Assembly: GCF_036507355.1 (NCBI RefSeq)
Contig: NZ_AP027877.1
Length of the DNA: 64,000 bases
Source of the DNA: Escherichia coli
GTDB taxonomy: Bacteria; Pseudomonadota; Gammaproteobacteria; Enterobacterales; Enterobacteriaceae
Reading direction: 5' to 3' (one strand)
Part shown: positions 15,235 to 19,175 of the stretch, piece by piece
Layout: each line of letters begins with the position of its first letter
Numbering within the stretch: the stretch's first letter is position 1
The notes under the pieces: model-generated
What the model was told of the DNA's origin: nothing
Seen by the model: the letters and a program-made list of their open reading frames with translations, nothing else
Database searches by the model: none
Position numbers and translations under genes: made by a program

Positions 15235-17226
15235 ATGTCCTCACGTAAAGAGCTTGCCAATGCTATTCGTGCGCTGAGCATGGACGCAGTACAGAAAGCC
15301 AAATCCGGTCACCCGGGTGCCCCTATGGGTATGGCTGACATTGCCGAAGTCCTGTGGCGTGATTTCCTGAAACACAACCCGCAGAATCCGTCCTGGGCTG
15401 ACCGTGACCGCTTCGTGCTGTCCAACGGCCACGGCTCCATGCTGATCTACAGCCTGCTGCACCTCACCGGTTACGATCTGCCGATGGAAGAACTGAAAAA
15501 CTTCCGTCAGCTGCACTCTAAAACTCCGGGCCACCCGGAAGTGGGTTACACCGCTGGTGTGGAAACCACCACCGGTCCGCTGGGGCAGGGTATTGCCAAC
15601 GCAGTAGGTATGGCGATTGCAGAAAAAACGCTGGCGGCGCAGTTTAACCGTCCGGGCCACGACATTGTCGACCACTACACCTACGCCTTCATGGGCGACG
15701 GCTGCATGATGGAAGGCATCTCCCACGAAGTTTGCTCTCTGGCGGGTACGCTGAAGCTGGGTAAACTGATTGCGTTCTACGATGACAACGGTATCTCTAT
15801 TGATGGTCACGTTGAAGGCTGGTTCACCGACGACACCGCAATGCGTTTCGAAGCTTACGGCTGGCACGTTATTCGCGACATCGACGGTCATGACGCAGCA
15901 TCCATCAAACGCGCAGTAGAAGAAGCGCGCGCAGTGACTGACAAACCGTCCCTGCTGATGTGCAAAACCATCATCGGTTTCGGTTCCCCGAACAAAGCCG
16001 GTACTCACGACTCCCACGGTGCGCCGCTGGGTGATGCAGAAATCGCTCTGACCCGCGAACAGCTGGGCTGGAAATACGCACCGTTCGAAATCCCGTCTGA
16101 AATCTATGCGCAGTGGGATGCGAAAGAAGCAGGCCAGGCGAAAGAAGCTGCCTGGAATGAGAAATTCGCGGCTTACGCCAAAGCCTTCCCGCAGGAAGCG
16201 GCTGAATTCACCCGTCGTATGAAAGGTGAAATGCCGTCTGACTTCGACGCGAAAGCGAATGAATTCATTGCGAAGCTGCAGGCTAACCCGGCGAAAATCG
16301 CCAGCCGTAAAGCGTCGCAGAATGCTATCGAAGCGTTCGGCCCGCTGTTGCCGGAATTCCTCGGCGGCTCCGCTGACCTGGCACCGTCTAACCTGACCCT
16401 GTGGTCTGGTTCTAAAGCAATCAACGAAGATGCTGCGGGTAACTACATCCACTACGGTGTTCGCGAGTTCGGTATGACCGCGATTGCTAACGGTATCTCC
16501 CTGCACGGTGGCTTCCTGCCGTACACCTCCACCTTCCTGATGTTTGTCGAATACGCACGTAACGCCGTACGTATGGCTGCGCTGATGAAACAGCGTCAGG
16601 TGATGGTTTACACCCACGACTCCATCGGTCTGGGCGAAGACGGCCCGACTCACCAGCCGGTTGAGCAGGTCGCTTCTCTGCGCGTGACCCCGAACATGTC
16701 TACATGGCGTCCGTGTGACCAGGTTGAATCTGCAGTAGCGTGGAAATACGGCGTTGAGCGTCAGGACGGCCCGACCGCGCTGATCCTCTCCCGTCAGAAC
16801 CTGGCGCAGCAGGAGCGTACTGAAGAGCAACTGGCAAACATCGCGCGCGGTGGTTATGTACTGAAAGACTGCGCCGGTCAGCCGGAACTGATTTTCATCG
16901 CTACCGGTTCAGAAGTTGAATTGGCGGTTGCTGCCTACGAAAAACTGACTGCTGAAGGCGTGAAAGCGCGCGTGGTGTCCATGCCGTCTACCGACGCATT
17001 TGACAAGCAGGATGCGGCTTACCGTGAATCCGTACTGCCGAAAGCGGTTACTGCACGCGTTGCTGTAGAAGCGGGTATTGCTGACTACTGGTACAAGTAT
17101 GTTGGCCTGAACGGTGCTATCGTCGGTATGACCACCTTCGGTGAATCTGCTCCGGCAGAGCTGCTGTTTGAAGAGTTCGGCTTCACTGTTGATAACGTTG
17201 TTGCGAAAGCAAAAGCGCTGCTGTAA
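15235..17226 (+). CDS. tktA: transketolase 1
   Basis: ORF 15205-17226; start at ATG 15235 gives the 663-aa product [52 protein letters not shown]... Confidence 0.96.
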
Positions 17227-17289
17227 TCAGTAAGACGTTTTGTGAGAAGGGCCGCGAAAGCGGCCCTTTAGATTATTGGTAAAGTGCGC

Positions 17290-17400
<111 letters not shown>

Positions 17401-17420
17401 TTGCTTTTGCCATCACTCTC

Positions 17421-17447
17421 AAGGGCCGCGAAAGCGGCCCTTTTTTT
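17421..17447 (+). terminator. rho-independent terminator (GC hairpin plus T7), second copy of the tktA-distal hairpin
   Basis: AAGGGCCGCGAAAGCGGCCCTTTTTTT; the stop codon of the convergent SPFH gene overlaps the T-run. Confidence 0.65.
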
Positions 17448-18354
17448 ACTTAGTAGAGATAAACGGAACTGTGCTGCCGGGGATCATGGTATCGGGCAGT
17501 TTACCGTCCCAACGTTCGGCAGTGGTGAGGGCTACAAGTCCGGGATTATCCCGCAGAGCTTCACCGCGCAGGCGGATTGCTTCTGCTTCAGCCGCACTTT
17601 TTAAACGAATAGTTTCAGCCTCTGCCGCGCCTCTTACGCGAATAGTTTCCGCTTCTGCTTTGGCTGCCGCCAGTTTACTGTCTGCTTCTGCCTGGGCCTG
17701 AGTTACCGCTATTTGCGCCTGGATTTTCTCTGTTTCCAGATTTTGCTTACGCGTGGCAATGGCGACTTCTGCTTTCATTCGGTCTTCAATCGACTTTTCA
17801 TAAGCGTCAGAAAAATCAATATTTTCAATCTGGACCCCGTCAATTACCACTGGCCCAACAACGGCTTTGCGCATGGCATTTTGCAGATCCTGAACCAGTT
17901 TTGTACGATCCTGTACAGCGCTGATGGCGGTATATTGGCCGAAAACGTTCTCCAGTTGAGTTGGCAACTGACGGACAATCAGACGATCTTTTAATGCTTC
18001 AATGGTGTTGTAGGTGGTATAAACCGCGCCTGCTTCTGAAGGTTTAATGTGGAAGCTGACTGATACTGTCATTTGTGCCGGTTGCTGGTCGCGGCTGTAG
18101 GCCTGTAATCCCTGATAGACCACAGCCTGATTACGCGTGGAAATTTTCTCCACGCTTTCCATAAACGGGATCTTAAAACCCAGACCCGGCTCGGCAACTT
18201 TTACGATTTTTCCGTAGCGCAGCAAAATGCCGCGTTCACCTTCATTAACGGTGTAATACGAGAGAAATGGCAGCACAACCACGGCAAGCACGCCAATGGC
18301 GATAGCAAGAGATTTTTGTGGGCGAAATGAGGTTAATGAAACAGGTGCTTTCAT
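17446..18354 (-). CDS. prohibitin-like SPFH/band-7 membrane protein (302 aa)
   Basis: ORF MKAPVSLTSFRPQKSLAIAIGVLAVVVLPFLSYYTVNEGERGILLRYGKIVKV...: N-terminal TM helix, PHB domain, C-terminal Ala/Glu-rich coiled coil with tandem AEAE[TA]IR[VL][RK] repeats; not one of the K-12 SPFH genes I know (hflK, hflC, qmcA, yqiK). Confidence 0.75.
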   Translation of the reverse strand: MKAPVSLTSFRPQKSLAIAIGVLAVVVLPFLSYYTVNEGERGILLRYGKIVKVAEPGLGFKIPFMESVEKISTRNQAVVYQGLQAYSRDQQPAQMTVSVSFHIKPSEAGAVYTTYNTIEALKDRLIVRQLPTQLENVFGQYTAISAVQDRTKLVQDLQNAMRKAVVGPVVIDGVQIENIDFSDAYEKSIEDRMKAEVAIATRKQNLETEKIQAQIAVTQAQAEADSKLAAAKAEAETIRVRGAAEAETIRLKSAAEAEAIRLRGEALRDNPGLVALTTAERWDGKLPDTMIPGSTVPFISTK

Positions 18355-18731
18355 GACAATCTTCCTTGAGTAAAGTGTGGGAATATGTCACATGAGATGA
18401 GGAGAAAACAGCCGACAGGTGAGAATTCAGAATCTATAAAGGGGTATAGCGAAAAAACATTGCATTAGAAAAGTATGTTTTCGAACATTCAATAAATAAA
18501 TAGAGATATGCATCACAAATACAATAACAAACAAAATGTTGATTTTGTGATAAATATAACAAATACAAAGTTGACTTTAAAAATATCAATTTCATATTGT
18601 TGTTATTTAAGGTTTTATTATTTTGGTTTATGGGGTTTTTCTTCTCGCGTACCCAATTGCTTTCATTAAACCGCACGAGTATTTTATTTTTACCGCCTGA
18701 CGGTACCCTAAAAATAAAATAAGGATAATTT

Positions 18732-19175
18732 ATGCGGCTTAGTGATTATTTTCCAGAATCATCAATCTCAGTTATACATTCAGCAAAAGATTGGCAGGAA
18801 GCTATCGATTTCTCGATGGTATCATTGCTGGATAAAAACTATATCAGCGAGAATTACATTCAGGCAATTAAAGATTCCACCATTAACAATGGCCCTTATT
18901 ATATTCTCGCACCAGGCGTGGCAATGCCTCATGCGCGACCGGAATGTGGGGCGCTTAAAACCGGGATGTCTTTGACATTACTTGAACAAGGTGTTTATTT
19001 TCCGGGGAATGACGAACCAATTAAATTACTCATCGGACTCTCTGCTGCCGATGCCGATTCGCACATTGGCGCTATTCAGGCGTTAAGTGAATTACTGTGC
19101 GAAGAAGAAATACTCGAACAACTCTTAACAGCATCATCAGAAAAACAATTAGCGGACATTATCAGCCGCGGATAA
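18732..19175 (+). CDS. cmtB: cryptic mannitol-type PTS enzyme IIA component
   Basis: 147-aa ORF MRLSDYFPESSISVIHSAKDWQEAIDFSMVSLLDKNYISENYIQAIKD... Confidence 0.9.
   Translation: MRLSDYFPESSISVIHSAKDWQEAIDFSMVSLLDKNYISENYIQAIKDSTINNGPYYILAPGVAMPHARPECGALKTGMSLTLLEQGVYFPGNDEPIKLLIGLSAADADSHIGAIQALSELLCEEEILEQLLTASSEKQLADIISRG

Follow-up and report, generated by a model that had tools for sequence, protein, structure and literature searches.

A stand-alone prohibitin-type SPFH gene with tandem hendecad repeats between tktA and cmtB of Escherichia coli

In Escherichia coli K-12, tktA and cmtB are direct neighbors, and the question arises what the additional gene located between them in other strains encodes and whether it is functional. 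This gene was analyzed in a DNA stretch of 64,000 nucleotides from E. coli (contig NZ_AP027877.1, assembly GCF_036507355.1), which is referred to as the window in the following. A first-pass annotation of the window had described a prohibitin-like SPFH protein of 302 amino acids (aa) featuring tandem 11-residue repeats in its C-terminal part. Results obtained in this study favor, with a probability of roughly 70%, the interpretation that the locus harbors a functional stand-alone gene of the p-prohibitin (SPFH4) subfamily, whose product would form a periplasmic cage and whose hendecad repeats are fixed.

Publications on E. coli SPFH proteins (PMC6788730, PMC10434171) deal with K-12 and count four members, namely HflK, HflC, QmcA and YqiK. 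A third of the sequenced E. coli strains, many pathogens and lineages of the sequence type (ST) 131 kind among them, encode a fifth, prohibitin-type SPFH protein, which is apparently unstudied, as no paper on the E. coli SPFH protein of the WP_000646940.1 type was found in the literature. Since carriers possess this fifth member, conclusions on redundancy drawn from the K-12 quadruple mutant may not carry over to them. Moreover, the gene could serve as an uncomplicated bacterial model, based on one gene only, for prohibitin-like assemblies, for which wall helices with two and with three repeat units exist in nature, and the recurrence of its relatives in conjugative transfer operons provides a testable lead to function. 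Otherwise the gene is ordinary, being a correctly annotated accessory gene that encodes an uncharacterized member of a known family.

Family placement and predicted architecture

The deduced protein matched a single Pfam family, PF01145 (Band_7), with an E-value of 5.6e-32 (111.6 bits at a gathering score of 23.6), and the matching residues 35-210 correspond to profile positions 2-176 of 176, i.e., to the complete domain. The prohibitin-like character given in the first-pass annotation was supported by a profile built from 98 family members, which ranked solved prohibitins first (7e-30, 1e-29 and 3e-26), followed by HflC (1.6e-23), HflK (5e-21), QmcA (1.6e-17) and stomatin (~6e-13). In the NCBIfam equivalog test, the cut-offs were reached neither for HflC (60.5 bits vs. 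134.4) nor for HflK (37.4 vs. 159.4) or FloT (17 vs. 700). The RefSeq name of the identical protein WP_000646940.1, which is encoded by strain PapM-32-1 and others, is ‘prohibitin family protein’. The family comprises 253 clusters at 50% identity with E-values of at most 1e-30, most of which match end to end and feature lengths of 270-310 aa.

The protein most likely corresponds to the SPFH4 ‘p-prohibitin’ subfamily of Hinderhofer et al. (2009; PMC2636767), which was described as monocistronic, devoid of an NfeD partner, probably periplasmic and unstudied. It shares with these proteins the prohibitin-like sequence, the solitary gene without NfeD and the predicted periplasmic orientation; none of them has been studied experimentally. 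Absence of an NfeD-type partner gene had been remarked upon before and held, since the other five open reading frames (ORFs) in the 1.5-kb gap between tktA and cmtB gave no Pfam match. It is no anomaly, because prohibitins and HflK/C proteins generally do without such a partner (PMC2636767), and its absence is thus expected here. Furthermore, the chromosomal SPFH gene stands solo in five further contexts inspected (E. albertii, Kluyvera, Pseudomonas, Erwinia and an uncultured bacterium), and no conserved neighbor gene accompanies the chromosomal relatives in Pseudomonas, Erwinia and the uncultured bacterium.

An AlphaFold2 model computed from the 98-sequence family alignment reached a mean predicted local distance difference test (pLDDT) score of 91.7. 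It places a membrane anchor in front of the SPFH domain and a long coiled-coil helix behind it, as is typical of the SPFH/Band 7 superfamily and of the protomers of HflK/C and prohibitin cages (Table 1). Foldseek searches of the PDB with the model returned exclusively protomers of SPFH cages, with E-values of 1e-12 to 4e-17 for HflC, PHB1/2, erlin, HflK and QmcA. HflC (7vhq_G, 3.9e-17) ranked ahead of human PHB1/PHB2 (8rrh, ~2e-15), followed by erlins, HflK, stomatin, QmcA (1.4e-12), flotillins and the major vault protein. As modeled, the single continuous 87-residue helix corresponds to CC1, which forms the wall in SPFH cages. Among the 98 family members, G57, P63, D89 and Q91 of the SPFH domain are invariant, and so are W282, G284 and P287 of the C-terminal tail, in which L286, P292 and P297 are conserved to at least 90%. 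The conserved tail residues W282, G284 and P287 are consistent with a cap-forming segment. In front of the anchor three K/R and no D/E residues are found, and behind it two K/R and two D/E residues; alignment to HflC covers the anchor and the SPFH domain from residue 5 onwards. Probably, the anchor acts as a signal-anchor that leaves the N-terminus on the cytoplasmic side.

Comparison with characterized systems refines this placement. Like PHB1/PHB2 (PDB 8rrh, 9o9z, 9unl, 9urz; 272-299 aa), which are of similar size, the protein is composed of anchor, SPFH domain, long coiled-coil helix and C-terminal segment in this order, and has no NfeD. Unlike these proteins, with which it shares 15-20% identity in structural alignment, it would reside in the bacterial instead of the mitochondrial inner membrane and possesses a longer wall helix with an extra hendecad specific for Escherichia. 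PHB1/PHB2 form a hetero-oligomer, whereas a single gene implies a homo-oligomer here. As in HflK/HflC (PDB 7vhp, 7wi3, 9cz1), the anchor is directly followed by the conserved motif GERG...PGL..K.PF, and this order suggests the same periplasmic orientation. However, the large SPFH-domain insertion of HflC (65 gap positions in the alignment) and the 80-residue N-terminal extension of HflK are absent, and the gene stands solo and co-exists with hflKC, whereas hflK and hflC form a gene pair. QmcA-YbbJ and YqiK-YqiJ (PDB 8z5g) resemble the protein in combining an SPFH domain with a coiled coil of 11-residue A/E-rich repeats and in the cage-forming protomer fold. Differences are that their SPFH domains are cytoplasmic and that an NfeD gene is adjacent to them; moreover, QmcA is a weaker sequence match (9e-7).

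These features suggest the following mode of action. The N-terminus would remain in the cytoplasm and the remainder of the protein would face the periplasm as in HflK/C, considering the collinear HflC homology and the positive-inside rule. Many copies side by side may assemble into a closed ring or cage, as known for the solved HflK/C, prohibitin, QmcA, erlin, stomatin and flotillin assemblies. In such a cage, the wall would be built from the 87-residue helices and the cap from the C-terminal tails, with the SPFH domains resting on the inner membrane at its outer leaflet. The structure may fence off a patch of the membrane plus an enclosed client, and a membrane protease such as FtsH is a speculative candidate for the latter, guessed from the HflK/C and prohibitin precedent. 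Geometrically, the extra hendecad of Escherichia would add three helical turns, corresponding to ~1.6 nm of wall height.

Tandem 11-residue repeats

The three tandem 11-residue units reported in the first-pass annotation were substantiated. At a lag of 11, 15 of 22 positions are identical, whereas 20,000 shuffles gave 4.6 on average and 11 at most, and the autocorrelation of the protein sequence peaks at lags 11 and 22. Identities between unit pairs amount to 8/11, 7/11 and 8/11. The units constitute the last third of the long helix. Periodicity of 33 bp in the DNA, which had also been described, is real but weak: unit pairs share 26/33, 18/33 and 21/33 nucleotides (55-79%), the longest exact run common to the units is 11 nt, and the same codon is used at 6 of 15 conserved residues. 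Moreover, Tandem Repeats Finder (TRF) detected no period-33 array, but solely a weak 11-bp match at 17618-17640. Because the units are diverged, share few codons and form no TRF array, the DNA periodicity is interpreted as the shadow of a constraint acting on the protein. Divergence of the DNA units also makes slippage unlikely, and the repeat is neither recent nor slippage-prone.

The additional assumption that this region is variable in length was not borne out. The coding sequence (CDS) measures 909 bp in all 46 E. coli alleles inspected, namely a sample of 40 taken in even steps through the ranking of the 1830 carriers and six fetched loci. Variation appeared only over evolutionary time, as two-unit forms in other genera and as rare deletions. 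Three units were observed in E. coli, E. albertii and Shigella, whereas Kluyvera, Klebsiella, Kosakonia, Erwinia and others feature two (AEAETIRL[KR]GA and AEAEAIRLRG[EA]); units 1 and 2 of E. coli therefore go back to the first unit of the ancestor, which underwent an old 33-bp duplication. In-frame losses of 11 or 22 aa are rare. They comprise P0011, a metagenomic form with two units, and P0014, an allele of E. albertii in which 22 aa are missing. The 302-aa cluster at 90% identity contains 2037 sequences, and the length variants listed form clusters of one to few sequences. The 305-aa protein of E. albertii differs from the E. coli protein by 3 aa at an internal site.

In the 98-sequence alignment, the helix segment equivalent to residues 195-275 adopts only lengths of 59, 63, 70 (mode), 74, 81 and 85 residues. 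Such quantized lengths indicate insertions and deletions of 11, 7 or 4 residues, at sites that differ between lineages; steps of this size preserve the register, as expected of a hendecad/heptad coiled coil. In most other lineages with an 81-residue segment, the extra 11 residues are located at a different site. The three repeats are interpreted as hendecads within the wall helix, a trait fixed in the lineage as opposed to a contingency repeat.

Distribution, relatives and possible functions

A survey of the gene across E. coli, as suggested in the first-pass annotation, revealed its presence in 1830 of 5426 complete genomes, while a 235-bp segment of the K-12 type was found in 3595. Hence, the tktA-cmtB locus is a near-perfect two-allele polymorphism in E. 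coli. Carriers include ST131 and O145:H28 strains, and O157:H7 exhibits the K-12 form. Of the 1830 carriers, 1818 have an uninterrupted reading frame and 12 contain a partial copy only. Alleles differing by ~3% in their DNA show 22-23 synonymous vs. 3 non-synonymous differences, corresponding to a ratio of non-synonymous to synonymous rates (dN/dS) of 0.03-0.04; the SPFH gene is under strong purifying selection.

Absence of the gene from this site in K-12, as indicated in the first-pass annotation, was verified for MG1655, in which tktA and cmtB are separated by a 313-bp spacer. According to blastn, homology between K-12 and the window ends 1 bp past the stop codon of tktA and is regained over the last 78 bp in front of cmtB. 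Local alignment of the 235 bp of K-12 to the window yielded no significant similarity (score 28, shuffle maximum 30), which argues for a replacement and not for a simple deletion; the K-12 spacer was accordingly rejected as a deletion scar. The K-12 segment (locus L001, 5410-5644) carries its own, different tktA terminator hairpin.

The gene order is tktA-SPFH-cmtB in E. albertii and tktA-SPFH-epd-pgk-fbaA in Kluyvera intermedia, and a Klebsiella orthologue features the same epd-pgk-fbaA flank. Protein identities in E. albertii, Kluyvera and Klebsiella range from 83 to 97%. From the tktA-linked orthologues it follows that the gene is ancestral and that the K-12 form represents a derived loss. 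An insertion in the window strain was therefore rejected, since in Enterobacteriaceae the gene next to tktA is the ancestral state.

Many further relatives, 57-74% identical, reside in the backbones of conjugative elements. Those with 71-74% identity are located between traB and traV of the F-type tra operon in all three Enterobacter and Kosakonia MOBF/MPF_F plasmids inspected, and a 64% identical relative lies just 5' of virB1-virB4 on a Salmonella contig with an IncFII replicon. Moreover, regions of K. oxytoca and Testudinibacter resembling integrative and conjugative elements (ICEs) carry relatives, and in backbones of Pseudomonas IncP plasmids they adjoin yejK, HU and sppA genes. In total, 103 plasmids of PLSDB encode a homologue, 48 of which were typed as conjugative. 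In a neighbor-joining tree calculated without support values, the tktA-linked clade is nested inside a grade rich in mobile genetic elements, which serves as a lead only. The E. coli ‘plasmid’ pE17EC0383-4 (CP088472.1, locus L029) was not used as evidence for a plasmid-borne copy, as loiP is located ~2.5 kb away and little annotation is available. This 32.8-kb sequence contains a frameshifted SPFH copy and fragmented CTX-M calls and probably stems from the chromosome or from a noisy assembly.

Several points weigh against a functional, cage-forming p-prohibitin. Two thirds of the strains lack the gene, and any function must therefore be dispensable. Moreover, the hflKC genes are present elsewhere in 5425 of the 5426 complete E. 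coli genomes, and carriers thus hold both systems; simple replacement of HflKC can therefore not be the role of the gene. SPFH4 and HflK/C were reported to occur seldom in one genome (PMC2636767), whereas about 1830 E. coli genomes contain both here. In a PDB search with the single sequence, HflC (2.4e-13) and HflK (9e-11) preceded QmcA and prohibitin (3.6e-5). The lone sequence is thus nearer to HflC than to prohibitin, and the designation ‘prohibitin-type’ rests on the profile result and the RefSeq name. Consensus-level promoter-like hexamers occur near 18553-18600 in the AT-rich spacer in front of the gene; a sigma-70 consensus scan retrieved three matches vs. 2.6 expected from shuffles, which is no better than chance, and no promoter is therefore claimed. 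The AT-rich spacer could also be silenced. Finally, the predicted structure is that of a monomer, from which a cage cannot be demonstrated, and oligomer, orientation and client would follow from analogy. Apart from these points, a 2026 study of nine SPFH proteins of P. aeruginosa described subtle phenotypes only, and a strong phenotype of this single gene is therefore less expected.

Among alternative explanations, a role as second FtsH modulator is the most plausible, although it is considered rather unlikely; a homo-oligomeric HflK/C analogue would cage the periplasmic domain of FtsH and thereby tune proteolysis in carriers. The best single-sequence PDB matches, HflC and HflK, extend over anchor and SPFH domain, identity to E. 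coli HflC is 24% over nearly the full length, and the prohibitins, which are the best profile matches, partner the m-AAA homologue of FtsH, a role also proposed for SPFH4 (PMC2636767). However, the equivalog scores for HflC and HflK are far under the cut-offs, a paired paralogue gene is missing and hflKC is already present in carriers. It is somewhat more doubtful that the gene was domesticated from a conjugative element, its family acting with type IV secretion systems (T4SSs) and the conjugation machinery as scaffold or membrane protection, and that the chromosomal copy retains a conjugation-related envelope function, e.g., helping or hindering plasmid transfer. The positions of relatives in tra operons, next to virB genes, in ICEs and in IncP backbones, the proportion of conjugative plasmids and the nesting in the neighbor-joining tree speak for this explanation. 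By contrast, the chromosomal gene has no T4SS neighbors and has been linked to tktA since before the split of Escherichia, Kluyvera and Klebsiella, the tree lacks support values, and operon position suggests but does not demonstrate a role; the literature search furthermore yielded no account linking SPFH proteins to tra operons. A broader proposal, equally tentative, regards the whole clade as periplasm-facing, homo-oligomeric prohibitin-type cages at home in conjugative plasmid and ICE backbones with F-type and VirB-type T4SS operons, where they would shield or scaffold the inner membrane round the secretion channel. The tktA-linked copy would then have been captured by the chromosome long ago and would still influence the physiology of the envelope or of conjugation in about one third of E. 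coli, ST131 among them, and the extra hendecad might tune cage height to the client.

Very little weight is given to the assumption that the gene is a silent, decaying and functionless remnant, silenced by H-NS together with the cmt operon and heading for loss as in K-12. In K-12, the cmt operon counts as cryptic, the GC content of the 5' spacer is 23-30%, the gene was lost in 66% of genomes, IS1 interrupts the spacer of one strain and the few partial copies likewise fit decay; yet the low dN/dS, the intact frames in nearly all carriers and the protein identity retained across the genera mentioned above contradict it. Slipped-strand contingency repeats altering protein length between clones are even less credible and largely refuted. 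Three tandem 33-bp units do exist and the rare variants P0011 and P0014 are in register, but the divergence of the DNA units, their short common run, the missing TRF array, the uniform length of the inspected alleles and the tiny size of the variant clusters compared to the 302-aa cluster oppose slippage. A membrane protein that acts on its own against phages or in abortive infection is just as improbable, although the patchy strain distribution and the frequency of relatives on plasmids and ICEs could be cited in its favor. PADLOC models gave no match (0 families at E-values of at most 0.01), and neither a defense island nor an effector domain was recognized at this ancestral site between core metabolic genes. 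A functional stand-alone p-prohibitin gene hence remains the preferred interpretation.

Flanking regions and feature coordinates

Coordinates of the gene, its encoded domains and the adjacent features are compiled in Table 1. The SPFH gene is arranged tail-to-tail (convergent) with tktA and divergent from cmtB, and its start codon follows the Shine-Dalgarno-like sequence at a distance of 6 nt.

Table 1. Features of the SPFH gene locus. Positions refer to the window, except for the last row, in which they refer to the named loci; +, - and. denote plus, minus and no strand.
Feature	Position	Strand	Details and basis
tktA	15235-17226	+	
174-bp unit: duplicate terminator hairpin AAGGGCCGCGAAAGCGGCCCTT and pair of repetitive extragenic palindromic sequences/bacterial interspersed mosaic element (REP/BIME)	17247..17420	.	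direct repeat; Rfam ES036 53.5 bits, weak naRNA4
GC-rich hairpin directly after SPFH stop codon, then T-run on + strand	17421..17442	.	terminator scan
SPFH gene, CDS	17446..18354	-	909 bp, ATG start, 302 aa, stop codon 17446-17448 (ORF list)
Predicted short helix, aa 272-281, and extended tail, aa 282-302 (ERWDGKLPxTMxPGxxVPF)	17449..17547	-	AlphaFold; conservation
Predicted single continuous 87-residue helix, aa 183-269	17548..17808	-	AlphaFold DSSP; pLDDT >90 to about residue 260
Three hendecad (33-bp) units AEAETIRVRGA / AEAETIRLKSA / AEAEAIRLRGE, aa 233-265	17560..17658	-	protein and DNA comparison
Fourth, degenerate unit AEADSKLAAAK, preceding the three	17659-17691	-	sequence
SPFH (Band 7) globular domain, aa 33-181	17812..18258	-	Pfam; AlphaFold pLDDT 95-98; Foldseek
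Predicted N-terminal membrane anchor, aa 12-31	18262..18321	-	AlphaFold helix; hydrophobic stretch LAIAIGVLAVVVLPFL
AT-rich divergent spacer SPFH gene/cmtB, 377 bp	18355..18731	.	GC 0.30, core 0.23, whole window 0.52
Shine-Dalgarno-like AAGGAAG	18361-18367	-	
Last 78 bp before cmtB, sole spacer part common to K-12-type allele; right breakpoint	18654..18731	+	blastn
cmtB	18732-19175	+	
Homologues on conjugative elements, 60-74% identical to the E. coli protein	L022 5905-6789, L024 5923-6789, L030 4905-5789 (plasmids); L027 5001-5885; L013; L016		

The tktA and SPFH genes, which converge, share the hairpin behind the SPFH stop codon as their terminator. In strains devoid of the BIME unit, it is the only hairpin in the tktA-SPFH gap. 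The 174-bp unit is present in zero, one or two copies across strains, resulting in gaps of 45, 219 and 393 bp, and an internal 12-bp deletion leads to a gap of 207 instead of 219 bp in one strain. Copy number of this unit thus varies between strains, unlike that of the coding repeats. Screening of positions 17000-19000 with Rfam identified no structured RNA in the AT-rich spacer; solely REP-derived families were detected, all in the spacer next to tktA.

The AT-rich DNA of about 380 bp that the first-pass annotation had placed upstream of the gene was recovered as the divergent spacer towards cmtB. Its length is 376-377 bp among E. coli alleles and 369 bp in E. albertii, and it contains conserved blocks. 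In the enterotoxigenic E. coli strain FMU073332, IS1 is inserted in this spacer (locus L007, 3756-4453), and both flanking genes are intact. Furthermore, a perfect 13-nt inverted repeat, TATTTTATTTTTA (18680-18692) and TAAAAATAAAATA (18709-18721), flanks a GC-rich core 10-50 nt 5' of the cmtB start. It is located within the 78 bp common to K-12, is largely conserved in E. albertii and may serve to regulate the cmt operon.

On the other side of the locus, recombination has turned tktA of the window strain into a mosaic. At about 16035-16335, a ~300-bp patch is nearly identical to PapM-32-1 but differs by ~10% from K-12 and two further strains, and the 600 bp at the 3' end of the gene (16635-17226) are 6-8% diverged from PapM-32-1 and closer to K-12.

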